This document shows, piece after piece, positions 6,076 through 54,678 of a stretch of 64,000 nucleotides of DNA. This DNA is from a virus. Taxonomy: Duplodnaviria; Caudoviricetes. How positions within the stretch are numbered: position 1 is the first letter of the stretch; every line of letters starts with the position of its first letter. Made by a program: the position numbers and the translations under genes. The notes under the pieces are model-generated. The model saw only the letters and a list, made by a program, of their open reading frames with translations. It made no database searches and was not told where the DNA came from. The stretch is taken from positions 91,392 to 155,391 of IMG/VR virus record IMGVR_UViG_3300031853_000003; one strand, given 5' to 3'.

Positions 6076-6498
6076 GGGCGTGCCAGGTTTCGACGGGGCG
6101 CGAGAACAAATAAGCTACGCTAGTATGCCACCGCTAAAGGGGCAACCTAAAAATAACTGACAAAGTTGTTTCTATTCACCCCGCTGCTATTGCTGCTCTT
6201 TTCGCAAGAAAGGCTGTAGCTTAATCAGCGATTTCGGGTACCAAAACGATATGGCCTGCTACTCGACGCATATCTGAGGTTCAAGGAAGTAGTAGCATCA
6301 CAGTTCGTCATCTCTGTAAAAGATGACTGGTGGAGCGATGAAACTTTTTCATCCCTAAGAGGGTAGCTGCCCTCAAGCTTCGGCTTGAACCAAACGACGT
6401 TGACAACCCGTACACAGCTTGAAATTTGTCTATGGCGTAAGAAATGCTTATTCAAGTATTCGTTTCGGACGCGGGTTCGACTCCCGCCACGTCCACCA
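6076..6498 (+). ncRNA. ssrA: tmRNA; tag ORF 6159-6224 encodes (A)DKVVSIHPAAIAALFARKAVA*
   Basis: 5' GGGCGTG..TTCGAC and 3' GCGGGTTCGACTCCCGC-CACGTCC-ACCA with the G3:U Ala identity pair; AATAACT-GAC resume context. Confidence 0.95.
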
Positions 6499-18284: not shown

Positions 18285-21200
18285 ATGGGTGTAAAAATCT
18301 ATAATGAAGGTAGAGTAGTAGGTTACAGTGCATACGAACTTTACGTCAAGCACTCACTGAGCGAAGATCCTAATACTCCACCTGCAACTGAGCTTGAATG
18401 GCTCTCATCTACAATAGCGATGGGCTCCTCAATGTTATTGAAGATCCCGACCGACGAAGTAAGCGGTCACCATCTTGTAGATTTTCAACTTCCTGAAAAT
18501 ACAAAACTTGCAGCTGCAAATACAATCCTTGGATCTCTCTTCCTAGGAGAAGCGGTAGTAGACGAAACCGGTTGGGCACAGAAAGTGACCAGTTACGGTC
18601 CACTTCTAACAAATTCAACTGCAAGACCTATATCTGGTCAGCATACTGCTGAAAGCACAGAGTATCCGACATCACTTTCGTCTCAGCTCAGTACTACACA
18701 GCAGAAACAGATTCTCAACTACATGAAGGTTGTAGATGGTATTGTTATTCAGCCAGGCAACTGGTCTGCGACAAATAGTACGCCTGCAAAGGATATGTCG
18801 CCTGTACTGTCTGAGAGACCTAGAGTGAGGATCTTCTTAAGTGACGCAGTCAAAGAAGCATTCTACGTTCTGCTAACAGGTTTCACACTACGCACAGTAC
18901 TTGCAGGAGTAAGCGGACTCGATGGTTCCACTGATACGTCAAATAACATTCCGGAAGACGGAGCATTCTTAGGACCTGGAATATTCCCGTGGGCAAACAA
19001 GATAGTATTCTCTATTCCGTCGATGTATGCTACATACTTCCTTGATAACAAGTATTCAAGAAAGATGTCAACAAACGGCAATCCGTCAACGAAGGAATCG
19101 TCAGCGAAAGAAGTTCATAGAATTCCTGTAGTAGATATGGAGACAACAGATCCTGCTACTTACTACTCGTCTAACTTCTCTGATAGCAGAGTACCTCTAG
19201 ATGTAGTAGATCTAAACAAGATCAACGGAGATGCTGTTTTAACTGTGTATCAAAGAGATGTAGCGTTCCCGCCTGCCCTCTTCGGTACAAAGGTCACAGC
19301 GACTGGCGAGCAGTATGCAAGTCCGCTAGATACAGTAGCTCCTGGAACAGTAAAGATGTTCAATGACACTGATAGAAGTGCTGCAGCTAGTAAGGCGATA
19401 AGTTTCCAGGATAAAATCAAGAATAACTACGCATTCTTCCGTGATACCCATGATTATGTAGTAAGGCAAATCAATCACACAGTATCCAGCAGTTCCAGCA
19501 ACTGGGTTGATATACCGGTAGCTGATACTTATGTAGATTCTATCTACGGAGCACTTGAAGATTCAGAAGTTATTCCGCCATTCTTCGTTAAACAATCAAA
19601 TAGTGGAGATCCATCAGATTATGCAGCGGTAACTACCATGTATACTCGTAGGATCCGAGGTAAAGTTTCAGATCAGTTTAGAACGGATTTTGGAATTGAT
19701 CCTGCAACTACGCAAGGATACAATTTCTTGCAATTGTTGATGCGGACAATCAACAGATCTGACACTAATCAGATAGATATATCAATAAACCATTCAATGT
19801 ATGATTACATCAAAGATGTCCCAGACTGGAAGTCGAAATATTTCTTCATCCTGCAAGGTAGCACAACTTTCAATGGAAATCATGTAAACAGCTTAACACT
19901 TGTTCCGGTAGCAAAACCTGTTGCAGGCGATGTTTCTCCCAGTAACACATTTGATTACATCTATAAATCCTATGGTCCTCAATTCAAGATACCTGTTTTA
20001 CTTCCTACATCTAGCACACTTGCAAATACTGCTGGAAGTTATGGACAGTACTTAGGCGGATATTGGAATGGAGAGGGTCCTACATCTCATAAGTCCATAC
20101 TTGAGTATCTGACAACAGTATGTGATATAAATCCAGTCGCCCTTATGGACTACAGACGTAAAGTTCCTGAGGTAGACGGATATACAGATTGGAGAGATGC
20201 ATACTCTGCAATAACTGTTAAGAATTTTGTATCCGCTGTAAGAGCAGATGCAGTAAACAGAGGAATAATTCCGTCTTCTGTAACACTTCAAAATATTCTG
20301 GATGGTGAATACACATATACATATCCGACTCCTGATGGTTCTGGAAATTATAGAAGCATCACCTTCCAGAAGATTGCAACACAGTATAGAACTAAGACAC
20401 TATCAGAGGTTTTTGAACTTGCAAAGTTCTACGATCTTAGCACAGGACAAGAGCTTAACAACGGTATCTCATTGAGGACACATTATGCTAAAGTAGCCAG
20501 CATTGAACTTACTGTAAATGGATCTGCAATGACATTGTCTGATGCACCTACATTGGTTATTGACTGGGATGACCAAGATTCACTGTATGAGCTTACAACA
20601 TCTGAACCGTCTGACTGGTCAACTAGATTCAGACATTATTTTACAAAGAGCGGATCTAATTACAGTAAAGTATCTGGTGATACTGCACCTGCATGGGCAG
20701 CAAGTACCTATTACAAGCCCATATATGAACTGTCTAACATCAAGTACACAGATACGTTGACATTCCAAACATCTGTACAGAAAGATTCTCCTGAGACCAT
20801 TGCACTTCCTTGGCCACAAGATTCTTCTCAGTATGTATTCAGTTCAGGTCCTCTCAACGTAACAAATGTTGCAGGTCTACATCAGACAAAGTCACTATCT
20901 GTTGCAGATAGCAGTGGTAAGATTTATGATATGTCAGGTGAAGGTGGAACTATCACAGATATGAAAGATGGTAACATTCACTGGGATGACATACTCAATG
21001 CACTTGTCAATAACAAGGCGATAGATGTTTTCAACACTACTCGATTCGCCAATGAGTTTTACAATCGTATTGTCGCAGGCGATGGCATCAAAGTAACACG
21101 TGACCCTAATGATGCTACGAAAACAAAGATATCAACTTATTTTGCTAAAGGACCCGGTATAGAATTATCAGCGGTAACAGACGCACACGGAGATACCTTC

Positions 21201-22085
21201 ATACAGATAACAAACACAGCAATGTACCCAGGTTCTGCAGCTGGATATCGAACCGTTGGTAGAAGTCATTACAATGCTGCATTCTTTGGAAACTTTGTAT
21301 CTGTTGATACAGGTACTAGCGAAGCACCTGGATTTGAAGATATTACACCAGCTTCCGGTAAGACGAAGTCTGCTATGTTAAGCTACTGTACTACATCTCC
21401 TAAGATAACAGTTAGTTTATTGCCTATTTTCAATGTAAATGGTGATGTAGATCAATGTTATATAAAAATAGCAGGTTCTGGATCAGAAGTTGATGGAAAC
21501 GGTAAAACACATCTGTATCATCTAGGAAATAAAGAATTCAGTGCTGATAAATTCCAGCTAGGACACTCTAATGGATATGACGGTCAGCCTCTATCTAAAA
21601 TATTCCATATACAGTTTAAGAATGAGGATTGGATTTACAAAGGTAAGTTGACAACTTCTCAGCCAGCTGATTGGGACACCAATTGGACAAACTATGCTAC
21701 ATATGTCAATGGTGAATACGTCAGGTTGTCTGGAAGCAAGCCTACTTGGCAAGCAAAGTCAGGCAGCTTCAACGGTTATTACAAGATAACTGATCATTTC
21801 AATTTATCTACATTACATTCAATGAGTTTCCAAGAAAACATGTCCGGTAATGATATCTGGAACATTCGAGGTATGTCAAGAGGATCTTGGACAGTTATCT
21901 GCGATCTAAACAAAACAAGTGCAAACGATCAGCACGAAAGTGCTGGATGGCTTGTATGTAACGCAGGATCAATCGCAGATGGGTTCAATAGCCAGCTAGA
22001 CGTTCTAGCTGCAACCGAAAGTAAGCAAGATAGCGATCTCTTTGCAGATTGGTTGAACCTGTTCCTACAAGGTATGTTCTACTAA
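18285..22085 (+). CDS. Large virion protein, probable tail fibre/receptor-binding protein
   Basis: 1266 aa rich in S/T/G/aromatics; N-terminal G.SAYE..V..EWL anchor motif; two LTTS.P.DW....Y repeats. Confidence 0.65.
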   Translation: MGVKIYNEGRVVGYSAYELYVKHSLSEDPNTPPATELEWLSSTIAMGSSMLLKIPTDEVSGHHLVDFQLPENTKLAAANTILGSLFLGEAVVDETGWAQKVTSYGPLLTNSTARPISGQHTAESTEYPTSLSSQLSTTQQKQILNYMKVVDGIVIQPGNWSATNSTPAKDMSPVLSERPRVRIFLSDAVKEAFYVLLTGFTLRTVLAGVSGLDGSTDTSNNIPEDGAFLGPGIFPWANKIVFSIPSMYATYFLDNKYSRKMSTNGNPSTKESSAKEVHRIPVVDMETTDPATYYSSNFSDSRVPLDVVDLNKINGDAVLTVYQRDVAFPPALFGTKVTATGEQYASPLDTVAPGTVKMFNDTDRSAAASKAISFQDKIKNNYAFFRDTHDYVVRQINHTVSSSSSNWVDIPVADTYVDSIYGALEDSEVIPPFFVKQSNSGDPSDYAAVTTMYTRRIRGKVSDQFRTDFGIDPATTQGYNFLQLLMRTINRSDTNQIDISINHSMYDYIKDVPDWKSKYFFILQGSTTFNGNHVNSLTLVPVAKPVAGDVSPSNTFDYIYKSYGPQFKIPVLLPTSSTLANTAGSYGQYLGGYWNGEGPTSHKSILEYLTTVCDINPVALMDYRRKVPEVDGYTDWRDAYSAITVKNFVSAVRADAVNRGIIPSSVTLQNILDGEYTYTYPTPDGSGNYRSITFQKIATQYRTKTLSEVFELAKFYDLSTGQELNNGISLRTHYAKVASIELTVNGSAMTLSDAPTLVIDWDDQDSLYELTTSEPSDWSTRFRHYFTKSGSNYSKVSGDTAPAWAASTYYKPIYELSNIKYTDTLTFQTSVQKDSPETIALPWPQDSSQYVFSSGPLNVTNVAGLHQTKSLSVADSSGKIYDMSGEGGTITDMKDGNIHWDDILNALVNNKAIDVFNTTRFANEFYNRIVAGDGIKVTRDPNDATKTKISTYFAKGPGIELSAVTDAHGDTFIQITNTAMYPGSAAGYRTVGRSHYNAAFFGNFVSVDTGTSEAPGFEDITPASGKTKSAMLSYCTTSPKITVSLLPIFNVNGDVDQCYIKIAGSGSEVDGNGKTHLYHLGNKEFSADKFQLGHSNGYDGQPLSKIFHIQFKNEDWIYKGKLTTSQPADWDTNWTNYATYVNGEYVRLSGSKPTWQAKSGSFNGYYKITDHFNLSTLHSMSFQENMSGNDIWNIRGMSRGSWTVICDLNKTSANDQHESAGWLVCNAGSIADGFNSQLDVLAATESKQDSDLFADWLNLFLQGMFY

Positions 22086-22118
22086 GGATCGCCATATAAA
22101 TTATAAGGAAGTGTATCT

Positions 22119-22370
22119 ATGAAGCGCAAAATAATTTCCGCAGAAGATCTCGGTTCAAAACAACTATTGAGTCAAGCGAATCAATCCCTATATGATACTT
22201 GGTACAATTACGCAGAAGACGGCGTATCGTATTCTTGGGTTGTGAAACATGTACAAGATACTGTGGAGCTTGCTTTTGAAGATGATGATATAGAACTACC
22301 AGCTAAATGGAGATCTCAAGTTAGAAAATATGTGAAAGATCATTATAATGACTATGATTGGAACTACTGA
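22119..22370 (+). CDS. Hypothetical (possible head-internal) protein
   Basis: AAGGAAG RBS; MKRKIISA N-terminus. Confidence 0.6.
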   Translation: MKRKIISAEDLGSKQLLSQANQSLYDTWYNYAEDGVSYSWVVKHVQDTVELAFEDDDIELPAKWRSQVRKYVKDHYNDYDWNY

Positions 22371-22380
22371 GGAGAATCTC

Positions 22381-22779
22381 ATGAAAATACTTTGCAAATC
22401 AGCACAACAGATTCCTGCAAGTACACAAGTGAAACGAGTAGGAAAGTATCTGTATAAACACCTCGAAACCTCATATGACTTCAATTCTGGTTCTAACATG
22501 TATGACGTGTATTTTACACTGTATTATCAGAAGAAGCATCCTAAACTTGGTATCGCTATCAATGGTATACAAGAGATACAGATCAACATCAACATAACTA
22601 CATATCAGAACAAATTGAGGGTGAACACTATAGAGGTTACACCTCAAGCAAGGACACTCGGATTTGATCTATTTACTCCGGATAAGCTCAATGATCTACA
22701 ATCTGCAATGAAACTGATTATGCAAAAAGTTGTAAGACGTGTAGAGAAAGCATATGAAGGTTTTGACATACTATTTTAA
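22381..22779 (+). CDS. Hypothetical protein
   Basis: GAGGAG RBS before ATG 22381. Confidence 0.65.
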   Translation: MKILCKSAQQIPASTQVKRVGKYLYKHLETSYDFNSGSNMYDVYFTLYYQKKHPKLGIAINGIQEIQININITTYQNKLRVNTIEVTPQARTLGFDLFTPDKLNDLQSAMKLIMQKVVRRVEKAYEGFDILF

Positions 22780-22815
22780 CCAACCCCTAACATTTCGATA
22801 GAAGCCGTAGCAGAA

Positions 22816-22850
22816 TTGCCCTTCAGTCTGACCGCTGAGGGGCAGTTTTG
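22816..22850 (+). terminator. Rho-independent terminator
   Basis: TGCCCTTCAG..CTGAGGGGCA followed by GTTTT. Confidence 0.75.
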
Positions 22851-22895
22851 TGTAAATTCGTTAAATATCATACAATGATCTAGGAGGTTGTTGAT

Positions 22896-23330
22896 ATGCC
22901 AAGTAGGATCAGTTGGAGCATAATCGGTCCTGACACAAATGGTTACACATACATTCTAGGCAAGTATGCTATCTATCTTCATATGATGAGATTCATGATA
23001 GGATTTCGTATAGTGTCGTATTCGCATAAGGTAACAGATATCGAAGTATCTGTTACACCTGGCGAAGCTATTTCAATCTACGATAGTACGAAATGTAATA
23101 CTGTAGAGCAGGCTATGCAGATGTGCGAGGATGAATTGAGCGAACTCTTTCGAGATGCTCAAAGCATCATGCGTGACCTCATTGCTGCGCTAGATGATCT
23201 TATTCATGAGAAATCAAATAACCTTGGCGTCGATGTTGATGATTCAGAGATTCAACAGCTTGTTTCAAAACGAGCTATCTGGGTGAAAGAACTCAACGAA
23301 CTGGAGAAAAATATCAGAAAGGACGGATGA
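22896..23330 (+). CDS. Hypothetical protein
   Basis: AGGAGG RBS; TCGTTA motif upstream. Confidence 0.65.
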   Translation: MPSRISWSIIGPDTNGYTYILGKYAIYLHMMRFMIGFRIVSYSHKVTDIEVSVTPGEAISIYDSTKCNTVEQAMQMCEDELSELFRDAQSIMRDLIAALDDLIHEKSNNLGVDVDDSEIQQLVSKRAIWVKELNELEKNIRKDG

Positions 23331-23331
23331 T

Positions 23332-23799
23332 ATGTCAACACATTATTCTGCATTATGCACAACAACTATGCCGTCGTTGGTACTCCCTACAGGAGAAATA
23401 TCTGAAGAATTCGCAAGATTTCTCACCGCATTTGAAGAGTGCATCAAGTATTCTAACTGGTCAGAGCTATACAAACTGACCGACATGGCATACTACGAAG
23501 ATGAATTCTGCGACGCTATCAAGTCTATGCACGGTAAACACTGGGACGAATATCGTTCATCATCGGAAAGATGTAGAGGCCTCTCCATCACAATTGATGC
23601 TGAAAGCTTCAACGAGATCAGCAGCTGCCAGCTTGCACGTATTCATGTAATCACATACATGTTGGTTGACGGTGAGGGTGGTCCCATTACACAGCAAGAG
23701 AAAACACTGCAACGTCATCATATGGACTGGTGGTTCACATATAAACGTGATAAATTCGTTATTGTAAGTGCGATACCTGAGGTGAAGATCATAACATAA
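23332..23799 (+). CDS. Hypothetical protein
   Basis: Coupled ORF. Confidence 0.55.
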   Translation: MSTHYSALCTTTMPSLVLPTGEISEEFARFLTAFEECIKYSNWSELYKLTDMAYYEDEFCDAIKSMHGKHWDEYRSSSERCRGLSITIDAESFNEISSCQLARIHVITYMLVDGEGGPITQQEKTLQRHHMDWWFTYKRDKFVIVSAIPEVKIIT

Positions 23800-23833
23800 C
23801 TTTCACCTTGTATAACTATCCAGGTGATGTCAT

Positions 23834-24097
23834 ATGAAGATGAGAGTTGAATACGTCAAAAGACGCCCTAATCAACTTGAGGAGGGCGTTTTATACATAT
23901 GCAAAGAATGTGAAGTTGCGTTTCATCTTTGCCCGTGCGGTTGCGGTGAGGAAGTAGTAACTCCTCTAGGTAATGAAGGCTGGCAACTGTTGGAACATGA
24001 AGATGGAGTAGTATCTCTGTATCCTTCAATCGGTAACTTCTCGTTCAGATGTCAAGCACATTACTTCATCATACAAAATGAAGTAGCGTTCGTCTGA
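23834..24097 (+). CDS. DUF6527-like metal-binding protein
   Basis: HLCPCGCGE.V..PL...W......VSL.PSIGN....C..HYFI pattern. Confidence 0.8.
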   Translation: MKMRVEYVKRRPNQLEEGVLYICKECEVAFHLCPCGCGEEVVTPLGNEGWQLLEHEDGVVSLYPSIGNFSFRCQAHYFIIQNEVAFV

Positions 24098-24223
24098 TGG
24101 AGAGGAGATGAGTAGAATGAAGAAGATCCTTATCTGATGTAAACATCATAGGCCACGCGGAGTTTTGTAATCTTCTGACAGCCTCCGCATACAACAAATC
24201 AAAAATAAAGGAGTAATTCAATC

Positions 24224-24970
24224 ATGAGAAAATTAACAACCGAAATCAAAGAAACACTCAGATCAATACCAGGGCTTGTCACGACGATATTCATCTTATC
24301 TTGCGTATGTATGAATCTCCTCGCCAACAAGTCTATTTTTAATACGCAGTACCTCGCGGTTACAGCTGGTATCTTCTTCTCCTGGATCGCTTTCCTCTGC
24401 ATGGATTGCGTCTGCAAGAGATTTGGATCGCGTGCTGCGACGATTCTCAACACTACGGCAACGGTCATTGCGCTGGTTACCTCTCTGCTGTTTGCACTCA
24501 TTGTCAAAGTTCCTGGTATCTGGGCATCTGTTTTCTCTGCACCGGAAGGTACCGGCGACGCTGTAAACACAGCCCTTGACGGAACATTTTCATCAACTTG
24601 GTACATTGTTGTAGGTTCTACTATCGCACTCTTCTTAGGTGGACTTACAAACTCTATCGTCAACAAGCTGATTGGCAAGAAAGCAGACAATGGAACATTC
24701 AAAGGATTTGCGATTCGTAGCTATCTGTCTACTGCGGCTGGCCAATTTGTAGACAACATCGTGTTTGCATTCTTCGTATCTTACATGTTCTTTGGATGGA
24801 GTATCCCTCAGGTGATCGGGTGTTCATTCTTCGGAATGCTTCTTGAGCTTGTTATTGAGATCGTCTTCTCTCCCCTTGGCTATCATGTTTCCAAGAAGTG
24901 GAAAGACGAAAACGTCGGCTCAGAGTATCTGAAGAAATATGCTTCCAAGGAGACAACTAATGCAGCTTGA
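24224..24970 (+). CDS. Queuosine precursor transporter (QPTR/VUT/YhhQ family)
   Basis: N.LANK, D....FG.R.A and RSY.ST..GQ.VDN..F motifs; about 6 TM segments. Confidence 0.88.
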   Translation: MRKLTTEIKETLRSIPGLVTTIFILSCVCMNLLANKSIFNTQYLAVTAGIFFSWIAFLCMDCVCKRFGSRAATILNTTATVIALVTSLLFALIVKVPGIWASVFSAPEGTGDAVNTALDGTFSSTWYIVVGSTIALFLGGLTNSIVNKLIGKKADNGTFKGFAIRSYLSTAAGQFVDNIVFAFFVSYMFFGWSIPQVIGCSFFGMLLELVIEIVFSPLGYHVSKKWKDENVGSEYLKKYASKETTNAA

Positions 24971-26417
24971 GACCTTATCAGCTGTGCAAATCGGGGACCT
25001 CGTCAACAAAGGCGAGGTCTCGCCGGTTGAAGTTATCAGATACTTCGCACAGCGTATTGATACACTGAATCCAAAGGTAAATGCTTTCACTTACACTAAA
25101 GTCGATGAAGCAATCAAAGAAGCTGAGAAGCTTGAATTGAGAATTCTAAAAGGCGAATACGGCGGACCGTTTGCAGGTGTACCTGTAGGCTTGAAAGACT
25201 TTCTCAACTCAAAGAAAGGCTGGTCAAACACTCATGGAGGAGTACCTGCTCTCAAGGCGATTGACACCTGCAACTCCAGGTTCTACTCTGCTGCGAAGAA
25301 GTTAGGAGCGATTGCTATCGGTAAGACCAATGCCCCTCCGTTTGGATTCAAAGGTACTTGTGATAACACAATGTACGGACCTACGCACAATCCTTACAAC
25401 TTGGAATACAATTCCGGTGGATCTTCCGGAGGTACTGCAGCAGCTGTTGCAAGCGGAATGATTCCTCTAGGAGAGGGCGGAGATGCCGGTGGATCCATTC
25501 GCATACCTGCAGCTTGGTGTAACTGTTTTGGCTTCAAGGCAGGCTTAGGATCTGTTCCGAGCGTATGCAGACCAGACGGTTGGACTGCTACACATCCGTA
25601 TTGCTTCAACGGCAGCATTACTAAGACGGTTGAGGATAGTGCAATCCTCTTCGATGCTATGAATCAGTATGACCCGCGTGATCCGATCAGCTTACCATTC
25701 AAGCACACCGCTAGATTAAAGATGAGTAATCCTATACGAGGAAGGAAAGTTGTTTTCACACCTGATTTTGGAATCTTTCCAGTTGATCCAAGGATCGCTT
25801 CCCTGGTAGAGTCGGCTGCGAAAGAGTTCCGACATGCCGGTGCAATCGTGCTGAATGACGACATCCACTTCCAGCACTCGTTGGATGAACTTGCTAGATG
25901 CTGGTGTAGATCTATTTCATTAGATACTACATTAGATATCCAAGAGTGGAAACGCAATGGGTTAGATCTGATAGGCGACCATAGCGATGAACTCACTCCT
26001 GAATTCATCTATTGGTATCATAAGACTCTTGAGACAGATATCTTCGATATTCGAGAGTTCAACGAAATCCGCACTGATGTCTTAGACACATTTGAGAATG
26101 CGTTCAAAGATGCAGATATCATCATCTCTCCAGTATCAGGATGTATGCCTCTTAAGAATTCAGAGCAGACTCCTGAGGCAATCCGAAAGATTGCAGGAAC
26201 CGAGTTAAGCAAAGATACAGATTTCATATCATTTGCAATGACGTTCCCGATCAACTTCGTCGGATATCCTGCAGCATCTATTCCGATCGGGTTCATTGAC
26301 GGACTTCCTGTAGGTATGCAGATAGTTGCACGTCAGTACCATGACGCAGATGTATTCATGTTTGCTCATGCGTATGAGAAGATGCATTCGTACTATCTTA
26401 CACGCCCTACCATCTGA
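24960..26417 (+). CDS. Amidase-signature family enzyme
   Basis: GVPVGLKD, GKTN, GGSSGG, GDAGGSIRIPAAW, GLPVGMQ; Lys-Ser-Ser triad intact; overlaps the QPTR stop. Confidence 0.92.
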   Translation: MQLETLSAVQIGDLVNKGEVSPVEVIRYFAQRIDTLNPKVNAFTYTKVDEAIKEAEKLELRILKGEYGGPFAGVPVGLKDFLNSKKGWSNTHGGVPALKAIDTCNSRFYSAAKKLGAIAIGKTNAPPFGFKGTCDNTMYGPTHNPYNLEYNSGGSSGGTAAAVASGMIPLGEGGDAGGSIRIPAAWCNCFGFKAGLGSVPSVCRPDGWTATHPYCFNGSITKTVEDSAILFDAMNQYDPRDPISLPFKHTARLKMSNPIRGRKVVFTPDFGIFPVDPRIASLVESAAKEFRHAGAIVLNDDIHFQHSLDELARCWCRSISLDTTLDIQEWKRNGLDLIGDHSDELTPEFIYWYHKTLETDIFDIREFNEIRTDVLDTFENAFKDADIIISPVSGCMPLKNSEQTPEAIRKIAGTELSKDTDFISFAMTFPINFVGYPAASIPIGFIDGLPVGMQIVARQYHDADVFMFAHAYEKMHSYYLTRPTI

Positions 26418-26480
26418 TACAACCTTCGTTAATAGTATAGTGTAAGCATCCTGTTTGCACTATACTATATTTATGATGAG

Positions 26481-27275
26481 GTGAATATCATGAATGGTAA
26501 ACACTGTAAGCCGAGACTGAGATCTCGAGTTACTGAGATAGGTTTTGTTATACTGATGTTTTGTGTTGTAGCAATACTGTTAGGCTTCATGATTAAAGCA
26601 GAGATCTATGACCAACCTGCAGAACCTACGCATGCAACTGATACTGCTACAATGTCAAAGGCCACCACAGAGTATCCAACAGAACAAGAGCTTCTGCAGT
26701 ATGATCTCCTACTTGTTAACAGAGAAAGTAAGTTACCACATGATTACACTGTCAACCTCGTGAAACTAGAAAACGGTCTACAAGTATCATCAGAATGCTA
26801 CGATGCATTACAGAAGTTATTAGATGATTGCATAGCTGCAGGTAACACACCGGTAGTTTGCTCAGCTTATAGATCTGTGGATGAACAGGCAGAATTGTTT
26901 GATGATAAGGTCTCAGAGCTGATGCGCGTATACAACTACTCCGAGAGCAAGGCGAAACAAGAAGCTGCGAAATCTGTTTCACCTCCAGGATACTCTGAGC
27001 ATCATACAGGTCTTGCAGTTGATATAGTTGATATCGACAACCAAAACCTCGAAACCTACCAAGAGGATACAGATACACAACAATGGTTGATAGCACATTC
27101 GTGGGAATACGGGTTCATTCTCAGATATCCAGAGGGCAAGAGTAGTCAAACTGGAGTTGGGTATGAACCCTGGCATTACAGATATGTAGGAGAGCACGTG
27201 GCTGCTGAATTACATGAGTCAGGTATGTGCTTCGAAGAGTATGTAGTAGGACCTGGATACTTTAACTATGAATGA
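26481..27275 (+). CDS. Membrane-anchored M15B D,D-carboxypeptidase (VanY-like)
   Basis: N-terminal TM, LLVN, SAYRS..Q, SEHHTGLAVD, GFILRYP, YEPWHYRYVG. Confidence 0.92.
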   Translation: MNIMNGKHCKPRLRSRVTEIGFVILMFCVVAILLGFMIKAEIYDQPAEPTHATDTATMSKATTEYPTEQELLQYDLLLVNRESKLPHDYTVNLVKLENGLQVSSECYDALQKLLDDCIAAGNTPVVCSAYRSVDEQAELFDDKVSELMRVYNYSESKAKQEAAKSVSPPGYSEHHTGLAVDIVDIDNQNLETYQEDTDTQQWLIAHSWEYGFILRYPEGKSSQTGVGYEPWHYRYVGEHVAAELHESGMCFEEYVVGPGYFNYE

Positions 27276-27466
27276 GATAATACAGATAGGCTACTGGGTC
27301 TATGAGATGCCTGATGAAGGTGTAGAGTTAAGAGCTTCTAATCGCATTGAACCAGATGACGTAGATATGTCACTAGTAGAATCGTTAAACTCAATACAAC
27401 AGCAACACATCAAAAACAATCAACAAATGTAAACAGAAACCAAATTCATGCTGTTGGGAGGAACTT

Positions 27467-28676
27467 ATGAGAAGCTACAATGTAAAACCCAGAAATTCAA
27501 CATCCAGAATCGCGGTCACATTTGATGACCACAACCTGCCGAGAGTACGCTTGGAGAATGTGTCGGAGGAGCAGTTACAGTCTGCTGGACTCTTCCTGCA
27601 GAACATCTCGCGAGATTACGTCATGCCGACCCCTCGCAAAAGAAAGCGTCGCTCTCTGAGAAAAGCGTTCATGAGAATGCTTCGTGCAATGACACAGGCA
27701 TTCACAGATCACAGCAAGTTTGTCAAAGAAACATCTCTTGCTGTCTATAAAGGTACACGGAGGTCTAGTATAGTTGACCAGTAAGGGCAAGCAACGCTGT
27801 AAGATGTGTAAGAGACGAGATTGTCTATACCACGCATCTCCAAAATCACATAACGCTTGTGATTACATTCTCTGCACAGGAAGGCGTAGAGATTGCCCTA
27901 CAGGTGAATTATGCAACAAATATGTTAAAGCAACTTCTGCGGAGCAGTCAGCTATTGCAGAACGAACCTGGAAACATTACAACTGGAACTACTCCGAAGA
28001 CGGAACACCATACTTGGAGGTATTTAGCAGATGGTGAATAACAACATCTTTCTTGTAATCGGACTTGTACTTGAGCTGATACTCCTGATAACAGCTATCA
28101 TACTGCTTGTAGCAGCTATCATCACTATCCGGAAGCTGCGTAAATCAGTAGAGGAATACTCAGAAGTATCATCAAAGTCGTTTTACCACACACAACAGCT
28201 TATCAGCGGCCAAATCCGGAAAGCTGAATCAGACATAATGAAACACTTAGACCCTAATTACATGAGGTGATATCATGAGGTGTTCATATTATCTGAGTCA
28301 TAAGAGCGACAGGAAGGGCAAGCTCAATATGGACGACATACTTCCGGGATTCTCAGAAAATCCTATGCTTTCCACAATGATGTTGACAGATGCACTTCAT
28401 CATAAGCACGCCGCAGATATGCAAGAACGTCGATTGGCAGTTGAAAAGCAGCTGTATCAACTCTACTATACAGAATCTGGTGAACTCAAAGAAGAGTATG
28501 CCGATAAGTCCTATCCGTTGATCCCGTTTCCGCTTATACATTCCAAAGGATGGAGATGTCCTGACTGCCAGATCAAATCATTTGACCCGGATACAATCGG
28601 CAAGATTGACAAATGTCCTAATTGTGGTCATCGACTTCAGTGGCCTGAAGGCAGCACAGATGCTGATAATGAATGA
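27467..28676 (+). CDS. Cluster of four small hypothetical genes (27467-27784, 27774-28037 Cys-rich, 28031-28270 single TM, 28275-28676 Zn-ribbon)
   Basis: Overlapping ORFs with GGAGG/GAGG RBSs. Confidence 0.55.
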
Positions 28677-42584: not shown

Positions 42585-43058
42585 GTGCCTAATACTAGAG
42601 TAGTACAGCGAAGTGAATTTGAGTGTGCGTATCTTATGCCGAAGGACAAGAGTAACAGAGACTATGAACTCAACGCACATTTCTACAAGATTGAAGCTAC
42701 TTTTGAAAATCGATCTGATGTAGAGGACTTTGTTCTCGATTTCAGAATCTGCAAACAGATCATGGACAGTGTGTTGCCGAATAACTGTTTCATCTATAAT
42801 GGCAGAGCAGTCACACCAAATGGTTCTGTATATACCATTGTAGAGTCTGCTGGAGAAGTAGAAGTAGCTGCTGCGATGGAGAAGGTAGGTGTTCCCGTCA
42901 AGCGATATGATTTCAAGATATCCGCGGAGACCCTCGCAGAATACTTCGCCTTGAGAATACAGCGTGAGCTCAATGCTCATGACTTAGCTAACATACAAGT
43001 ACGAGAGCTCAAGTTGCGAGAGACTGCTGATTCATTCGCCACTTGGTCACTCGTATAG
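42585..43058 (+). CDS. QueD/PTPS-like T-fold protein with degenerate metal site
   Basis: EFECAY, LNAH.YKIE, VLDF..K, SAE.LA, L.ET..S.A.W. Confidence 0.75.
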   Translation: MPNTRVVQRSEFECAYLMPKDKSNRDYELNAHFYKIEATFENRSDVEDFVLDFRICKQIMDSVLPNNCFIYNGRAVTPNGSVYTIVESAGEVEVAAAMEKVGVPVKRYDFKISAETLAEYFALRIQRELNAHDLANIQVRELKLRETADSFATWSLV

Positions 43059-43106: not shown

Positions 43107-43802
43107 ATGGCTTTCAAGTCACTAAAAGATTACAACGAAGAGAAATTTGGCGGACTGTTCCTTCTTCGCAACGACGGCGATTACGCTGACGTAGTATTCC
43201 TGTACCCGAGCGAAGACGACGTGATGGTCGGAGACGTCCATTATATCAAGTCGTCCGAATACAGCGGATACGTTCAGTGTACTGGCAAGGGTTGCCCCGC
43301 TTGCGCAAAGGGCATCCGTGTCCAGACCAAACTGTTCATTCCCGTTTTCAACATCACTGCCGGCGAGGTCCAGTTCTGGGACAGAGGTATCCGTTTCGAG
43401 ACTCAGCTCCGCAACGACGTGTTCAAGAACTTCCCAAATCCTACAGAGTACGTTTTCCGTATCACCCGTCACGGCGTAGCGAACAGCGTAGACACAACGT
43501 ATGAGATCCAGGCCATCGGCAAGAACGGTTCATATCCGTATGCGCAGATTCTCGAAGAGAACCACGTCGAGTTTCCGAAGTATTACGAGAACATCTGCAA
43601 GGACTACACCTCGGCCAAGCTCTACGATATCATCAATACATCACCGTCAGCGCAGTCAGCGTCAGGAGATATGCCAACCTATCAGGTTACACCTCGTCCT
43701 GCACCTACTGTATCTGCTCCTCCGAGGTCAACTGAGGATGTACTTCCTCCGAGCCTCAATGCAGATGATTTCAACGACATCGACGGCGAAGTAGACTTCT
43801 AA
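43107..43802 (+). CDS. Single-stranded DNA-binding protein (gp32-like)
   Basis: VH...C..CP.C, F.ITR.G..DTTY, acidic/aromatic tail DIDGEVDF. Confidence 0.8.
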   Translation: MAFKSLKDYNEEKFGGLFLLRNDGDYADVVFLYPSEDDVMVGDVHYIKSSEYSGYVQCTGKGCPACAKGIRVQTKLFIPVFNITAGEVQFWDRGIRFETQLRNDVFKNFPNPTEYVFRITRHGVANSVDTTYEIQAIGKNGSYPYAQILEENHVEFPKYYENICKDYTSAKLYDIINTSPSAQSASGDMPTYQVTPRPAPTVSAPPRSTEDVLPPSLNADDFNDIDGEVDF

Positions 43803-43875
43803 GATAAGAATACAGTAGTCGAGTGTGCAATACTTTTGTGCATTCGGCTATTTGTTTTATAATGGAGGTGAAACC

Positions 43876-46449
43876 TTGGGACTATTCACAATGTCGCAAT
43901 TAGATGAAATCAACAAGGTTGCTGCAAAGAGTAAGGCTGCTTTGAAGCCGATGAAAGCACCTAAGACGAAATCTATCAGCGATGACTTGAATAGGATCTC
44001 GAAGAACGTAACAGAGTACTTCAAGGACTCAAAGGCAATCTGTATACATAGTCGTGATGAATTACATGACTATGTTACAGCGTGTATTAAATTCGGCTAT
44101 GCTGGAATAGATACTGAGACAACAGGCCTCGACAGAGTAAACGACTATGTTGTAGGTGCGTCTTTGTTTGTTCCCGGTATGCCTGAATGTTATATACCGA
44201 TGAAGCATCGAGTTCCTATCTTCGAGAATCCATATCCGGATCAGCTCAGCTACGAAGACGTAACTCCTGAGTTTCAACGTCTTGCTGACGAAGGCTGTAA
44301 GCTGATATTCGCAAACGCAGATTACGACTTGGCGATGATCAACAAAGATCTGAAAGTCGACCTCTGCGATGCATGTTACTATGATGTCATCCTTGCATGG
44401 AGATGCTTGAAAGAAGATGAAAAGGACAACACCTTGAAAGGTCTTTATAATAAGTACTTCTTGCGAGGTAAGGGAGATCCAAAGAAGTTTAGTGATTTCT
44501 TCTCTCCTGAGTTATTCCCCTATTGCAAACCTGATGTTGCAAAGTTGTATGCTGCAAACGATGCTAAGATCACATATGAGCTGTTTACATGGCAGTTACC
44601 ATATGTTACACCAGATAATCCGAAGTGTAAGAAGAGGCATCTTGAAAGCATTGCAAATCTGATCTGGAACGTCGAGTTCCCATTGATTAAGGTCTGCCAA
44701 CAGATGCACCGTACAGGTATGTATATTGACAATACTACCGCCCGCACCTTGAAGCAAAGATACAAAGGCCTCTATGATGCAGAGATGGATAAGTTAAGTG
44801 AGCTGGTGCAAGAGATCATCAGAACATCTGACTATTCATCTACTTCTAAACGTCCGTTCTCTTCTGGTAAGGATTTCAATCCGAAATCAACTACCCATGT
44901 AAAGTATCTACTGTATACAATGATGAAACTTCCGAGTGGAGGAGCTGGCAGAGGCGGCGGAGGAACTGGTAAAGACGTACTTGGTGAGTTGAACCTCCCA
45001 GTTACAAATCAGATACTTCGAGTTCGTAGCCTAGGTGTACTTATCAGCACATTTGTAGATAAGTTACCTGCTGCGGTAACACCTGACCAACGAATACATG
45101 GACAATTCAAACAGATTGGTGCAGCTACCGGACGATTCTCGTCTGCTGAGCCGAATCTACAGAATATTCCATCACACGCAACTGACATTCGCCATATGTT
45201 CCGAGCTACTCCCGGATATGTTATGCTATCTAGCGACTACAGCGCCCAGGAGCCGCGCATAACCGCTTATGTTTCACAAGACCCTGAAATGATAAAAGCG
45301 TTCCAAGAAGGCAGAGACGTATATGCAAGTATAGCAAGTCTGGCTTTCAATGTTCCATATGAAAAATGTCTTGAATTTCATCCCGAGACTGGTGAGTATC
45401 AACCAGATGGTAAAGCTCGAAGAAACGAAGCAAAGACGATCTTACTAGGTCTTACATATGGCCGTTCAGTTCCGTCAATCGCTGAGCAGTTGTACGGCAA
45501 AGATAAAACTATGACCGACGAGCAGAAGATTGAAGGCGCACAGAAGATATATGACTCCGTGCTGAACGCCTTCCCGAATCTTCGTAAGATAATGCTAGCA
45601 ACACAAAAGGCTGCTGCAGCAAATGGCTACACAGAAACCATTCTTGGTAGACGTAGACATCTTCCGGATATGCAGTTACCTGAATTTGAGTTTGTTGCAT
45701 TACCTGGATACGTCAATCCAGATGTAGATCCACTTGATGCTTCTACTCTACAGAATACTTCTGATATTCCTGCAAGAATCAAAGAAGAGCTTCTGAAGGA
45801 GTTTAAGGGCTACAAGTACTTCGGTCAGATTGCTAAACGTACAAAGGAACTGCACGATAATGATAAGATACGTGTAATCAATAATCGTCCTAAGATCAAT
45901 GACGCAACACGTCAATGTCTCAATGGTGTTATCCAAGGAAGCGCCGCCGACATGACGAAGTTGGCTATACTTCGACTCACTCAAAGTGAGGAGTGGAACG
46001 ACATCCATGGTCGGCTGCTTGTACCAGTACATGATGAGATAATCGCTGAAGTTCCAATGGATAAGTGGAAAGAGGGCGGCGAGATACTCAGTAAGATGAT
46101 GATCGACGCTGCAGATTTCCTCCCGTTCCCAAGTAAGTGTGATGTAACTACTACACTCAGATGGTATGGGTTAGAGTATCCTTGCAAATATCCTCAACCT
46201 TCGTCAATGGATAATCTAACACCGGATGAAGTCAAGTGGGTTCAGTACATGCTTACAGAGATGGAGTATCAACTTCCTGTATTCAAGGATGAAAACGGTG
46301 ACAAGCCAAGAGGCGATGCTGCCCTAGGTGTCAACGGAGTAGTTTCAGACCAGTACGAAGAAGCTATTCAAGATTACATGAATAGATACAGCATAACCAT
46401 TGAGCAATTCATTGATCACATAAGTACAAAAGTATACAAAGGAGAATAA
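43876..46449 (+). CDS. polA: Family A DNA polymerase with 3'-5' exonuclease, no 5'-3' exonuclease
   Basis: IDTETTG, TGRFSS..PNLQNIP, DYSAQEPR, R..AK...G..YG, IQGSAAD..K, VHDE; TTG start after GGAGGTG. Confidence 0.95.
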   Translation: MGLFTMSQLDEINKVAAKSKAALKPMKAPKTKSISDDLNRISKNVTEYFKDSKAICIHSRDELHDYVTACIKFGYAGIDTETTGLDRVNDYVVGASLFVPGMPECYIPMKHRVPIFENPYPDQLSYEDVTPEFQRLADEGCKLIFANADYDLAMINKDLKVDLCDACYYDVILAWRCLKEDEKDNTLKGLYNKYFLRGKGDPKKFSDFFSPELFPYCKPDVAKLYAANDAKITYELFTWQLPYVTPDNPKCKKRHLESIANLIWNVEFPLIKVCQQMHRTGMYIDNTTARTLKQRYKGLYDAEMDKLSELVQEIIRTSDYSSTSKRPFSSGKDFNPKSTTHVKYLLYTMMKLPSGGAGRGGGGTGKDVLGELNLPVTNQILRVRSLGVLISTFVDKLPAAVTPDQRIHGQFKQIGAATGRFSSAEPNLQNIPSHATDIRHMFRATPGYVMLSSDYSAQEPRITAYVSQDPEMIKAFQEGRDVYASIASLAFNVPYEKCLEFHPETGEYQPDGKARRNEAKTILLGLTYGRSVPSIAEQLYGKDKTMTDEQKIEGAQKIYDSVLNAFPNLRKIMLATQKAAAANGYTETILGRRRHLPDMQLPEFEFVALPGYVNPDVDPLDASTLQNTSDIPARIKEELLKEFKGYKYFGQIAKRTKELHDNDKIRVINNRPKINDATRQCLNGVIQGSAADMTKLAILRLTQSEEWNDIHGRLLVPVHDEIIAEVPMDKWKEGGEILSKMMIDAADFLPFPSKCDVTTTLRWYGLEYPCKYPQPSSMDNLTPDEVKWVQYMLTEMEYQLPVFKDENGDKPRGDAALGVNGVVSDQYEEAIQDYMNRYSITIEQFIDHISTKVYKGE

Positions 46450-53721: not shown

Positions 53722-54678
53722 ATGGTATATTATTTTTCTGGTGGACTCACTTATGAGATGGCCAACCTCTTGAAGGCGATGCCTGGATTTGAGCCCATCG
53801 ATGTTCTAGTTTCTCAGCTAGATAGATCTTCCGTTGACACTATGTTGAAGCATAAGGCCAACGGAGTCGTAAAGAGCTTGTTTATCGACAGTGGTGCATA
53901 TTCTGAGCATACTGGTAAGGGCAAGGTTGACTTAGAAGATTACATCAACTTCGTCAACTCTATCGATGAACACATTTCAGCTGTTGCACAGCTTGATACA
54001 ATTCCCGGTGAGTTCAACAAGCCGAAATCTCCAGAGGATTATGTCGAGTCTGCTGCAAAATCTTGGGAGAATTTCGAGTACATGTATGAGAAGCTGAAGT
54101 CCCCTGAGAAGCTGATTCCTGTATTTCATTTCGGAGAATCATTCAGTGTTCTCGAGAAGATGCTGTCCTGGAAAGACAAGAACGGCAAGCCGCTTACATA
54201 TGTAGGTATCTCACCTGCGAACGATTCTGCACAGAAGACCAAAAACAAATATCTACAGAACGTGTATGACGTTATCCGGGAGTCATCAAACCCAAATGTA
54301 CGTACTCACTTGTTCGGTATGACAGCACTTGATGCACTCTCCAAGTTCCCGTGCTACTCTGCAGATAGTGTTTCACATAGACTCATGGGTGCATACGGAA
54401 AGGTCCTTATCCCTGAGTTTGGCGTAATCTCTGTATCCAAGAAAACTCGTACAAGTAAGACTAAGTCCAACATGAGTTTCCTCGATACTGCGGACGATAT
54501 GGCCATGGCTCGTCTGAAAGCATATCTCGACAGCATCAACGTTACTGTAGAGGATCTCCAAGCATCTCATTCTGTCAGATGTGCTGTATCTATGTACAGT
54601 ATCATGAAGATACTTAAGGACAAGCCATACGATGCAAAGAATACAAAGCGTGTCAAGAAGCTTTTTGATTTGAGGTGA
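53722..54678 (+). CDS. TGT-fold transglycosylase (DpdA-like)
   Basis: LFIDSGAYS, QLD.IP, IPVFH.G, HLFG, YSADS.S. Confidence 0.8.
   Translation: MVYYFSGGLTYEMANLLKAMPGFEPIDVLVSQLDRSSVDTMLKHKANGVVKSLFIDSGAYSEHTGKGKVDLEDYINFVNSIDEHISAVAQLDTIPGEFNKPKSPEDYVESAAKSWENFEYMYEKLKSPEKLIPVFHFGESFSVLEKMLSWKDKNGKPLTYVGISPANDSAQKTKNKYLQNVYDVIRESSNPNVRTHLFGMTALDALSKFPCYSADSVSHRLMGAYGKVLIPEFGVISVSKKTRTSKTKSNMSFLDTADDMAMARLKAYLDSINVTVEDLQASHSVRCAVSMYSIMKILKDKPYDAKNTKRVKKLFDLR

Follow-up and report, generated by a model that had tools for sequence, protein, structure and literature searches.

In a large phage of the cattle rumen, a riboswitch-like leader RNA, a membrane transporter and an amidase-signature hydrolase probably form a preQ1-controlled salvage arm that feeds a DpdA-like enzyme, the amidase converting an amide-masked precursor to preQ1. 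In the proposed mechanism, the transporter would import a 7-deazaguanine compound from the rumen fluid, the cytoplasmic amidase would hydrolyze an amide bond in the imported compound to release preQ1, and the DpdA-like enzyme would swap the salvaged base into the phage DNA, most likely as dPreQ1. Binding of preQ1 to the leader RNA would let its loop pair with the Shine–Dalgarno sequence and turn translation off. What we infer is the identity of the leader's ligand, of the compound transported, of the amidase substrate and product and of the modified base in the virion DNA. The simplest candidate substrate is preQ1 acylated at its aminomethyl nitrogen, a hypothetical compound because preQ1 derivatives with an amide bond are not known to occur free in nature as metabolites. 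The phage genome is a complete record of 155,391 bp with terminal repeats, and all coordinates are those of the window, the 64,000-nucleotide stretch of this genome that was analyzed.

The transporter gene (24224-24970, plus strand) encodes a Vut_1/YhhQ-family protein of 248 amino acids that matches PF02592 (6.6e-23, 82.2 bits with a cut-off of 27.2, profile positions 1-151 of 152) and marginally passes the cut-off of TIGR00697, "queuosine precursor transporter" (57.1 bits, cut-off 50.95). Its orthologue in a related phage (L002) is 64% identical, and the protein is predicted to import a preQ1-family base or a masked form thereof. The amidase gene (24960-26417, plus strand, 485 amino acids) starts most plausibly at the ATG at 24960, with AAGGAG ahead of it at 24948-24953, and overlaps the transporter gene, whose stop lies at 24970, by 11 nt. 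Its product matches PF01425 from end to end (2.8e-83, profile positions 1-444 of 445), reaches the cut-off of none of the NCBIfam equivalogs and is predicted to be a cytoplasmic enzyme that converts the imported compound. An earlier note, made from the sequence without database searches, had described the 11-nt overlap and an intact amidase, and both are borne out by the open reading frames, the two Pfam matches and an invariant catalytic triad. A terminator-like hairpin with a 17-pair stem was identified by a consensus scan at 26432-26468 (plus strand), 15 nt past the amidase stop codon, and probably marks the 3′ end of the unit. Contigs from metatranscriptome runs of two studies stop at 26423 and 26428, which is a weak hint for the 3′ end of the unit, and the locus is present in bovine gut metatranscriptome assemblies, whose contigs are no proof of transcription, strand or ends and whose gaps are uninformative. 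A megablast search of positions 22000-28000 against the GenBank phages gave no match, and a tblastn search of the same phages with the amidase returned only distant matches (24-37% identity), most of them from records that are contaminated or lack annotation.

Within the amidase, Lys79, Ser155 and Ser179 are invariant among 25 aligned homologues and residues 153-158 form the Gly/Ser-rich signature GGSSGG; we take the three invariant residues to be the Ser-cisSer-Lys catalytic triad of the amidase-signature family. The best solved relative in a PDB sequence search is an aryl acylamidase (4YJ6/4YJI, 362 bits) that aligns over the full length, shares the catalytic triad and cleaves N-acyl amines, not primary aromatic carboxamides. 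This enzyme is known for acetanilide-type xenobiotics and, unlike the phage amidase, is neither transporter-coupled nor riboswitch-controlled. GatA structures scored 151 bits in the same search, which also listed ClbL among the matches, and an assignment as GatA was rejected based on the TIGR00132 score (201 bits against a cut-off of 481) and on the absence of conserved partner genes at the bacterial loci described below. A literature search found no paper that ties YhhQ, preQ1, queuine or phage deazaguanines to an amidase of this kind, in agreement with the earlier note, which had placed the enzyme outside the described phage deazaguanine pathways. The amidase is a candidate for an undescribed queuosine-precursor salvage enzyme.

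Besides the transporter and the DpdA-like gene, the only queuosine-pathway homologue in the genome is a weak QueD/PTPS-like protein in the replication module (42585-43058, plus strand; PF01242, 9.3e-9; phrog_2389 "QueD-like", 3.5e-6). No match to FolE, radical SAM/QueE, QueC, QueF or the TGT Pfam model was found in the whole 155,391-bp genome, so that the inventory given earlier for the window (a DpdA-like enzyme and a weak QueD, no folE, queE or queC) holds for the complete phage. The DpdA-like guanine transglycosylase (53722-54678, plus strand, 318 amino acids) has no Pfam match at E values up to 1, including PF01702, and no PDB match by phmmer, and was recognized as TGT-like through fold comparison only. 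An AlphaFold2 model (pLDDT 89.6) retrieved tRNA-guanine transglycosylases in all of the top 50 PDB matches of a Foldseek search (E about 2e-9, TM 0.5-0.6, probability 1.00). The protein carries an invariant Asp56-Ser-Gly motif, which resembles what we take to be the TGT catalytic motif. The DpdA-like enzyme is presumed to be the user of the salvaged base.

The transporter–amidase pair is not a phage invention and occurs as a self-contained cassette in at least 79 rumen and gut bacterial species. The bacterial set comprises 80 loci with an amidase 48-57% identical to the phage enzyme. Vut_1 is located directly upstream of the amidase on the same strand in every locus with room for it (76 of 76), downstream of the amidase in two others and 317 nt away in one. 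No third gene is conserved around the cassette, the commonest other neighbor being present in 8 of the 80 loci, and the cassette Vut_1 shows no linkage to que genes. In bacteria the pair is thus literally a common host cassette unlinked to DpdA, a finding that the earlier note had set against its salvage idea; the idea stands because the bacterial cassette would serve tRNA queuosine.

The carriers span three phyla and dozens of rumen species. All 44 carrier genomes that were checked contain Tgt and QueA, a genuine QueC is present in two (with a fragment in a third) and a genuine QueF in four; QueT is absent from 31 of the 44 and the cassette Vut_1 is the sole Vut_1 in most of them. Since the carriers have Tgt and QueA and nearly all lack QueC and QueF, they must scavenge preQ1, and it is reasonably likely that the cassette supplies it for tRNA queuosine. 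The proposed direction of the reaction follows from the closest solved relative, which hydrolyzes N-acyl amines, and from preQ1 being the sole useful product for organisms with only Tgt and QueA. The enrichment of QueC loss among the carriers is modest (p = 0.01, relatedness ignored) because this loss is common in the background, QueC being also missing in 113 of 150 sampled Lachnospiraceae. The cassette-type Vut_1 proteins form a divergent subgroup (72-92 bits, whereas canonical YhhQ proteins encoded beside queC or queF score 119-177 bits) and may have a substrate different from that of E. coli YhhQ.

The leader RNA (24153-24217, plus strand) was identified by a covariance-model match and by homology to other phage leaders. 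Its P1 stem (GCGGAG/CTCCGC, 24157-24162 and 24183-24188) encloses a 20-nt loop (24163-24182) with a CU-rich anti-Shine–Dalgarno stretch and is followed by an A-rich tail that runs into the Shine–Dalgarno sequence at 24208-24213. The hairpin itself had been pointed out before as possibly regulatory; it is present, and its membership in a family of regulatory leaders is supported by homology and covariation. Its significance comes from these two sources, and its stability was discarded as evidence, the thermodynamics being no better than chance (z = 0.09). When the window was searched with a covariance model of 37 bacterial cassette leaders, this leader was the only match (19.5 bits, E about 0.008-0.02). 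The same loop type and tail precede Vut_1 at 10 further phage loci and in one bacterium, and the leaders of this type have five different P1 stems that are all fully paired. The phage loci stem from a loop-motif scan of viral contigs with 39 matches, 28 of which lacked a stem and a downstream Vut_1 and were treated as chance. Among the bacteria, one motif is common to 65 leaders, with P1 100% paired and both sides changed in four of its six pairs, and the covariation score of 0.506 was reached by none of 500 shuffles (0.157 in shuffles).

Type I preQ1-I riboswitches are marked by three features (PMC11625349): the 5′ strand of P1 is followed by UU, its 3′ strand is preceded by UC, and the tail holds a conserved C. 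All three hallmarks are found among the bacterial leader variants; the window leader has the UU and the tail C, but its P1 3′ strand is preceded by GC in place of UC, so that its ligand may be a compound different from preQ1, or it may have none. The cassette leaders resemble type I preQ1-I riboswitches (RF00522; PMC11625349) in the short P1 hairpin and the A-rich tail behind it, which extends to the Shine–Dalgarno sequence, and differ from them in longer loops of 13-20 nt and in scores far below the threshold or no match at all, the window variant being further set apart by its conserved 20-nt loop and the GC before the P1 3′ strand. None of the leaders reaches the RF00522 gathering threshold of 39 bits. 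A Treponema variant scored 20.2 bits with the Rfam PreQ1 model (E = 0.032), which is below the threshold and was obtained only in very short search ranges, and the commonest bacterial variant gave no match to RF00522. Rfam searches likewise returned no match for the window leader at E values up to 10, no riboswitch at gathering thresholds in 20 bacterial loci and none at E values up to 5 in five bacterial loci.

Six phage amidases form a single clade (support 100) that is nested among Clostridia amidases in a phylogenetic tree, and a single capture of the cassette from Clostridia by a lineage of large rumen phages is the history that we favor with moderate confidence. The pair directly follows a QueF-QueC-QueD-QueE-FolE block in L002 and directly precedes the same block in L092, and it occupies the same genomic position without que genes in the window and in the phages L007 and L093. 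Fifty IMG/VR records with the same DpdA-like family, 23 of them complete, were compared. Vut_1 is encoded in 39 of the 50 records, QueC in 27 and the amidase in 14; among the complete records Vut_1 is present in 21, and it is located <3 kb from queC in 25 of the 26 records that have both. The earlier note had suggested looking for transporter, amidase and DpdA together in phages, and this combination is found in all 14 amidase records, with Vut_1 at a distance of 0.14-7.5 kb from the amidase and queC between the two in four cases. Among the complete records, four of the seven that lack queC encode the amidase, as do 2 of the 16 that have queC (Fisher p = 0.045; p = 0.02 with the window added). 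The amidase is absent from 25 of the 39 related phages with the transporter, so that import without it is evidently enough in many of them. The DpdA orthologues of the sister phages are 50-70% identical. QueF accompanies QueC in all seven phages tested, and the related phages with biosynthetic genes encode a true QueF with Cys55 and the NADPH motif, which indicates that the lineage makes preQ1; an ammonia-using QueF-like enzyme in the sister phages was ruled out by this motif. Separately, three 36-kb phages (L003-L005) encode a YhhQ that is 49% identical and located in the replication module, with no amidase near it and no member of this DpdA-like family.

The earlier note had combined a salvage arm for DNA modification by the DpdA-like enzyme with a new deazaguanine pathway in which the amidase converts ADG to CDG or supplies ammonia, and only the first part is retained. 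If ADG (7-amido-7-deazaguanine) were imported and hydrolyzed to CDG, DpdA would insert CDG and the phage would carry carboxy-deazaguanine DNA. ADG is the only well-known carboxamide-bearing 7-deazaguanine, and CDG would not be processed further in a phage that lacks QueC. However, CDG is a dead end for the at least 79 carrier species, which have Tgt and QueA and no QueC, QueF or DpdA-type context; CDG, ADG and ammonia are all of no use to them, and only preQ1 would help. Sister phages with an orthologous DpdA have QueC and a true QueF, some of them together with the amidase, and an ADG hydrolase would oppose QueC. With the nearest solved enzyme also acting on N-acyl amines and not on primary aromatic carboxamides, the conversion of ADG is quite improbable. 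A glutaminase-like role, in which the amidase supplies ammonia to an amidotransferase step (QueC or a QueF-like archaeosine synthase), is highly improbable. The idea draws on GatA, the glutaminase subunit of tRNA amidotransferase, belonging to the same superfamily, and is opposed by the low GatA equivalog score, by the far better match to the aryl acylamidase, by the absence of a partner synthetase from the phage genome and from about 90% of the bacterial carriers and by the QueF of the sister phages, which is of the reductase type and not of the ammonia-using type.

The substrate of the amidase might also be a polymer: in phage DNA the enzyme could take an acyl group off preQ1 that is already incorporated, or transfer one to it, as the undoing of a hypermodification or the hypermodification itself, and in bacteria it could act on bases bound in tRNA. 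Acyl transfer is a property of some members of the amidase-signature family, ClbL being among the PDB matches, and in four phages the amidase stands apart from the transporter among the que genes. The strict translational coupling to the transporter at all 76 bacterial loci and the absence of a nucleic-acid-binding partner or domain point to a small-molecule substrate instead and make a polymer unlikely. We assign a similarly low probability to a cassette that is unrelated to 7-deazaguanines, in which Vut_1 would import another amide (a vitamin amide such as nicotinamide, or a plant or xenobiotic anilide) and the adjacency to que genes would reflect a hot spot for auxiliary genes. The Pfam family is described merely as a "putative vitamin uptake transporter", the Vut_1 subgroup is divergent, the closest solved enzyme degrades acetanilide-type compounds, and three phages share the position of the pair with que genes absent. 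This explanation is at odds with the preQ1-I hallmarks of the bacterial leaders and the sub-threshold Rfam PreQ1 match, with the placement of the pair beside the que block in two gene orders, and with the proximity of Vut_1 to queC and its near-constant presence with the DpdA-like family. Finally, the transporter might import preQ1 itself and the amidase serve as a safeguard that destroys toxic amide-bearing deazapurine analogues entering by the same way. Many related phages have the transporter alone and carboxamide deazapurine antibiotics such as sangivamycin exist (PMC11625349), yet a safeguard gives no reason for an excess in phages without synthesis genes, where the amidase is commoner. 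The known producers of such antibiotics are soil actinomycetes and not rumen anaerobes, and a safeguard function appears improbable.

The salvage of an amide-bearing preQ1 precursor has parallels in known systems. In phages, a TGT-family DpdA swaps guanine in the DNA for a 7-deazaguanine, and some phages without synthesis genes, proposed to use host or imported precursors, as well as some that encode YhhQ have been described (Hutinet et al. 2019, PMC6884629). The closest of these systems are the dPreQ1-type modification of Streptococcus phage Dp-1 and that of the group termed "DpdA only". The phage described here differs from them in a DpdA too divergent for the TGT Pfam model, in a transporter of a distinct low-scoring Vut_1 subgroup and in the presence of a riboswitch-like leader and an amidase, neither of which is mentioned in that study; and whereas YhhQ was found there to correlate with no phage group, 21 of 23 complete genomes of this lineage encode the transporter. 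E. coli YhhQ (COG1738), a preQ0/preQ1 importer according to Zallot et al. (2017) as cited in PMC11625349, belongs to the same Pfam and TIGRFAM family as the phage transporter, and yhhQ is under preQ1-I riboswitch control in many bacteria (PMC11625349). The cassette-type transporter differs from it in a lower score (82 bits against 119-177 bits) and in being always coupled to a cytoplasmic enzyme. The salvage system of Clostridioides difficile, which consists of the QueK hydrolase and the QueL radical-SAM lyase (Yuan et al. 2019, as cited in PMC11625349), follows the same logic, a queuosine-related compound being imported and then converted to preQ1 for the bacterial Tgt; the cassette enzyme belongs to another class (a Ser-Ser-Lys amidase) and hence would differ in its chemistry and substrate.

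Most gut and rumen bacteria are unable to make queuosine precursors, which are micronutrients for them and whose recycling is only partly known. An importer with a dedicated amidase that is kept by rumen species and phages is a sign of a salvage reaction so far undescribed, and probably of an undescribed natural compound as well. A precedent for the proposed chemistry, by analogy only since proteins and cofactor are unrelated, is the salvage of the thiamine pyrimidine (ThiXYZ importer, YlmB deformylase, TenA), in which an N-formylated aminomethyl heterocycle is imported and amide hydrolysis yields the free aminomethyl precursor. The phage probably writes a modified guanine into its DNA, and a salvage route taken from the tRNA-modification economy of the host could provide a phage without synthesis genes with the base for a restriction-evading DNA modification.

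A wider and more tentative proposal, which we consider possible but doubtful, is that an amide-masked preQ1 such as N-acyl-preQ1 circulates in the rumen as a shared micronutrient that bacteria and phages import and unmask through the cassette, under the control of an uncatalogued preQ1-I-like riboswitch branch that includes a variant with a conserved 20-nt loop of its own, borne mainly by phages (one bacterial example). If true, queuosine biology would gain a compound, an enzyme and an RNA subclass that are all new, and phages would compete for a micronutrient to arm their DNA. Cultured carriers of the cassette include Eubacterium uniforme ATCC 35992 and the Lachnospiraceae strains XPB1003 and NC2004. 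Sister cassettes were also observed in which a low-scoring Vut_1 is coupled to a short-chain dehydrogenase in place of the amidase.

The window forms the last 64 kb of a complete virus record of 155,391 bp with direct terminal repeats, and nearly all of its genes lie on the + strand. The gene at 24224-24970 (+) encodes a Vut_1/YhhQ-family membrane protein of 248 amino acids (PF02592, 6.6e-23; TIGR00697, 57.1 bits at a cut-off of 50.95) and is followed by a gene for an amidase-signature enzyme of 485 amino acids (PF01425, 2.8e-83). The most plausible amidase start is the ATG at 24960, which is preceded by AAGGAG at a distance of six bases and results in an 11-nt overlap with the end of the transporter gene, exactly as an earlier note had described this pair. 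The amidase did not reach the cut-off of any NCBIfam equivalog (GatA, 201 bits with 481 required), and its nearest solved structure by far is the aryl acylamidase 4YJ6/4YJI (362 bits; GatA structures score ~150 bits). An alignment with 24 homologues shows no variation at Lys79, Ser155 or Ser179. A terminator-like hairpin (26432-26468) separates the amidase gene from the gene directly 3' of the cassette, which encodes a VanY-type D-Ala-D-Ala carboxypeptidase (26481-27275; PF02557, 6.2e-40) that is probably an endolysin or tail-associated lysin. A DUF6527 gene (23834-24097) is located just 5' of the leader, and a gene upstream of the cassette region (18285-22085) encodes a protein of 1,266 amino acids without a family match, probably with a role in the tail or in host recognition. 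The related phage L007 carries large genes at the matching position, one of them with a Flg_new domain.

Many studies of bovine gut metagenomes contain the cassette stretch, as do metatranscriptome assemblies. A single contig of 2,558 nt from one RNA run is identical to the window and covers 23866-26423, and contigs from a second study start at 23866 and end at 26428, just 5' of the terminator-like hairpin. This is only a weak hint that the leader, transporter and amidase share one transcript, as contigs of this kind leave strand and ends undefined and DNA may be present in RNA libraries. The common start of the contigs from both studies lies within the annotated DUF6527 frame and may reflect the start of the transcription unit or a later start of the DUF6527 gene.

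Homologues of the amidase number in the thousands, and the best (54-61% identical) belong to metagenome bins of Clostridia. When prokaryotes were scanned with one genome per species, 80 amidase loci were returned, almost all in rumen or gut Lachnospiraceae, Oscillospiraceae, Erysipelotrichaceae, Treponema and Selenomonadaceae, including cultured isolates. The Vut_1 gene lies immediately 5' of the amidase gene on the same strand in 76 out of 76 loci with upstream room; in two loci it lies 3' of the amidase gene, and in one it is 317 nt off. No other conserved gene was found in the neighborhood of the bacterial cassette, and the pair is located amid ribosomal-protein and housekeeping genes in a Saccharofermentans genome. 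A common host cassette unlinked to DpdA, which the earlier note regarded as grounds for abandoning salvage, thus literally exists, but the salvage idea survives because of what the carriers have in common, a need for preQ1. Tgt and QueA are each encoded in 44 out of 44 carrier genomes, genuine QueC in two (with a fragment in a third) and genuine QueF in four, and most carriers must therefore import preQ1 or a compound that is convertible to it in one step. Each of the 44 carriers contains exactly one low-scoring Vut_1 (72-92 bits), the cassette copy. A canonical Vut_1 (119-166 bits) is present as a second copy only in the few carriers with queC/queF, adjoining those genes, and QueT is absent from 31 of the 44 genomes; the cassette transporter is often the only recognisable import candidate. 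The enrichment of QueC loss among carriers is modest (p = 0.01, kinship ignored) because such loss is common in the clade: QueC is missing in 113 out of 150 other sampled Lachnospiraceae, none of which (0/150) contains the amidase.

The leaders of the bacterial cassettes are strikingly conserved, and a covariance model built from 37 of them matched 65 bacterial leaders at 60-78 bits. All 363 cells of their six-pair stem are paired and four pairs vary on both sides; covariation is 0.506 compared with 0.157 in shuffles (0/500 reach the observed value) and at most 0.149 with slid partners, in an alignment that was fitted to the model and is biased towards the structure. Common to the variants are UU following the 5' strand, UC preceding the 3' strand and a C within an A-rich tail that extends into the Shine-Dalgarno sequence; the UU, UC and tail C are hallmarks of type I preQ1-I riboswitches (PMC11625349). 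A Treponema leader matched the Rfam PreQ1 family at 20.2 bits (E = 0.032 in a 151-nt search, threshold 39 bits), the commonest bacterial variant was not recognised by Rfam at all, and these leaders are not catalogued in Rfam 15.

The only match of the bacterial leader model in the 64-kb window lies at 24153-24217, directly 5' of the transporter gene (19.5 bits; E about 0.008-0.02 by a rough calibration). The match contains a GCGGAG/CTCCGC hairpin (~24157-24189) that had been proposed as a possible regulatory element. Its folding energy is unremarkable (z = 0.09), but its homology is informative. The 20-nt loop is unlike that of the bacterial majority but recurs in one Lachnospiraceae cassette (L078). 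A pattern scan of viral contigs for the loop motif found 39 places, 11 of which are followed by a Vut_1 gene, and all 11 display the full architecture. Across the window, L078 and the phage loci, the loop is the same but is enclosed by five different stems of 6-9 bp, all perfectly paired, and the tails end alike at the ribosome-binding site. Each loop variant shows a stretch of pyrimidines that could pair with the Shine-Dalgarno sequence. The window leader has GC, not UC, before the 3' strand. The model match, the shared loop, the varied paired stems and the Shine-Dalgarno-pairing run identify the hairpin as stem P1 in a conserved leader that is related to the preQ1-I type, is carried mainly by phages and may still bind preQ1. 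Only the tail part of the leader in the related phage L092 (8424-8469) matches the bacterial model (16.5 bits) and a longer hairpin replaces the stem, which suggests rapid evolution of the leader in phages.

A search of the remaining genome for folE, queC and queE, suggested in the earlier note, found none; the whole-genome searches gave no match to FolE, radical-SAM/QueE, QueC, QueF or Pfam TGT. The sole QueD-like match is a weak one (42585-43058) within the replication module, where its neighbors, SSB (43107-43802) and a family-A polymerase (43825-46449), are replication genes unrelated to QueD; it lies far from both the cassette and DpdA, in a genome without other synthesis genes. Sequence methods found no relative of the DpdA-like protein (53722-54678). 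A confident AlphaFold2 model built from 29 homologues (pLDDT 89.6) was compared with the PDB using Foldseek, and the top 50 matches are all tRNA-guanine transglycosylases; the protein also has an invariant Asp-Ser-Gly motif. Based on the modelled fold, the motif and the negative que-gene searches, the phage is predicted to have a TGT-fold enzyme of the DpdA kind and no means of 7-deazaguanine synthesis. The gene directly 3' (54680-55210) encodes a dATP/dGTP diphosphohydrolase N-terminal domain (PF18909, 1.8e-13), and a dGTP-depleting enzyme beside a guanine-swapping one may affect the extent of guanine replacement.

The co-occurrence of transporter, amidase and DpdA was checked across phages. 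The DpdA-like family is present in 57 IMG/VR contigs, mostly of 120-200 kb; among the 50 searched, Vut_1 was found in 39 (21 out of 23 complete records), QueC in 27 and the amidase in 14. Vut_1 is located within 3 kb of queC in 25 out of 26 records holding both and 0.14-7.5 kb from the amidase gene in every amidase record. In four of these, queC intervenes between the two, so that separation from the transporter does not remove the amidase from the cluster. Of the complete records, 4 out of 7 without queC and 2 out of 16 with queC contain the amidase (p = 0.045; 5 out of 8 and p = 0.02 with the window added). QueF was present in all seven tested phages with QueC and absent from all three without it. 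The gene order is QueF-QueC-QueD-QueE-FolE-transporter-amidase in the related phages L002 and L006 and transporter-amidase-QueF-QueC-QueD-QueE-FolE in L092, and L007, L093 and the window carry the pair by itself, at a shared position upstream of KTSC and DUF932 genes. In a FastTree phylogeny (midpoint root, no outgroup), six amidases from phages group in a single clade (support 100) within Clostridia sequences, consistent with one capture and long vertical descent thereafter. The QueF proteins of L002 and L092 contain Cys55 and the NADPH-binding QueF motif, and these phages are accordingly predicted to make preQ1, not archaeosine. Directly 3' of the amidase gene, L002 encodes a 118-amino-acid protein (6117-6473) with a weak phosphoribosyltransferase-domain match (2.4e-6) and no homologue in the window's phage genome. 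In another IMG/VR record (G240), two partial Vut_1 matches (95445-95828 and 98661-99068) flank QueC (97361-98005) and may represent split or duplicated transporter genes.

Most likely, the transporter would import a 7-deazaguanine compound that the amidase would convert to preQ1 in the cytoplasm, to be installed by DpdA in the phage and by Tgt in bacteria, with preQ1 feeding back on the leader. PreQ1 is the expected product because no other compound is of use to carriers that have Tgt and QueA alone, and in the phage because sister phages are predicted to make preQ1 and an orthologous DpdA should accept the same base. Two other roles raised in the earlier note, conversion of ADG to CDG and supply of ammonia, fit poorly with the distribution of the cassette. 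With preQ1 as product and a nearest relative that cleaves N-acyl amines, the simplest substrate would be an N-acylated preQ1. Salvage of formylaminopyrimidine for thiamine is a chemical precedent for unmasking an amide; the presence of the transporter without the amidase in 25 related phages counts against N-acylated preQ1 as the substrate, which is not known as a free metabolite. DpdA systems and YhhQ genes of phages are already known, as are preQ1-I riboswitches; here, a proposed salvage arm supplies a known modification system, its enzyme being undescribed and its riboswitch relative uncatalogued. No paper was found that links an amidase with queuosine or deazaguanine salvage, in agreement with the placement of the enzyme outside the known phage pathways in the earlier note.

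In three Lachnospiraceae, a cassette-type Vut_1 is translationally coupled to a short-chain dehydrogenase of ~217 amino acids instead of the amidase (L089:3864-5308; L090:3337-4839, - strand; L091:3318-4800, - strand). At least one of these cassettes is preceded by a preQ1-like leader (L091, 4790-4840, 17.7 bits), and the arrangement looks like a second, parallel salvage unit for import and conversion.
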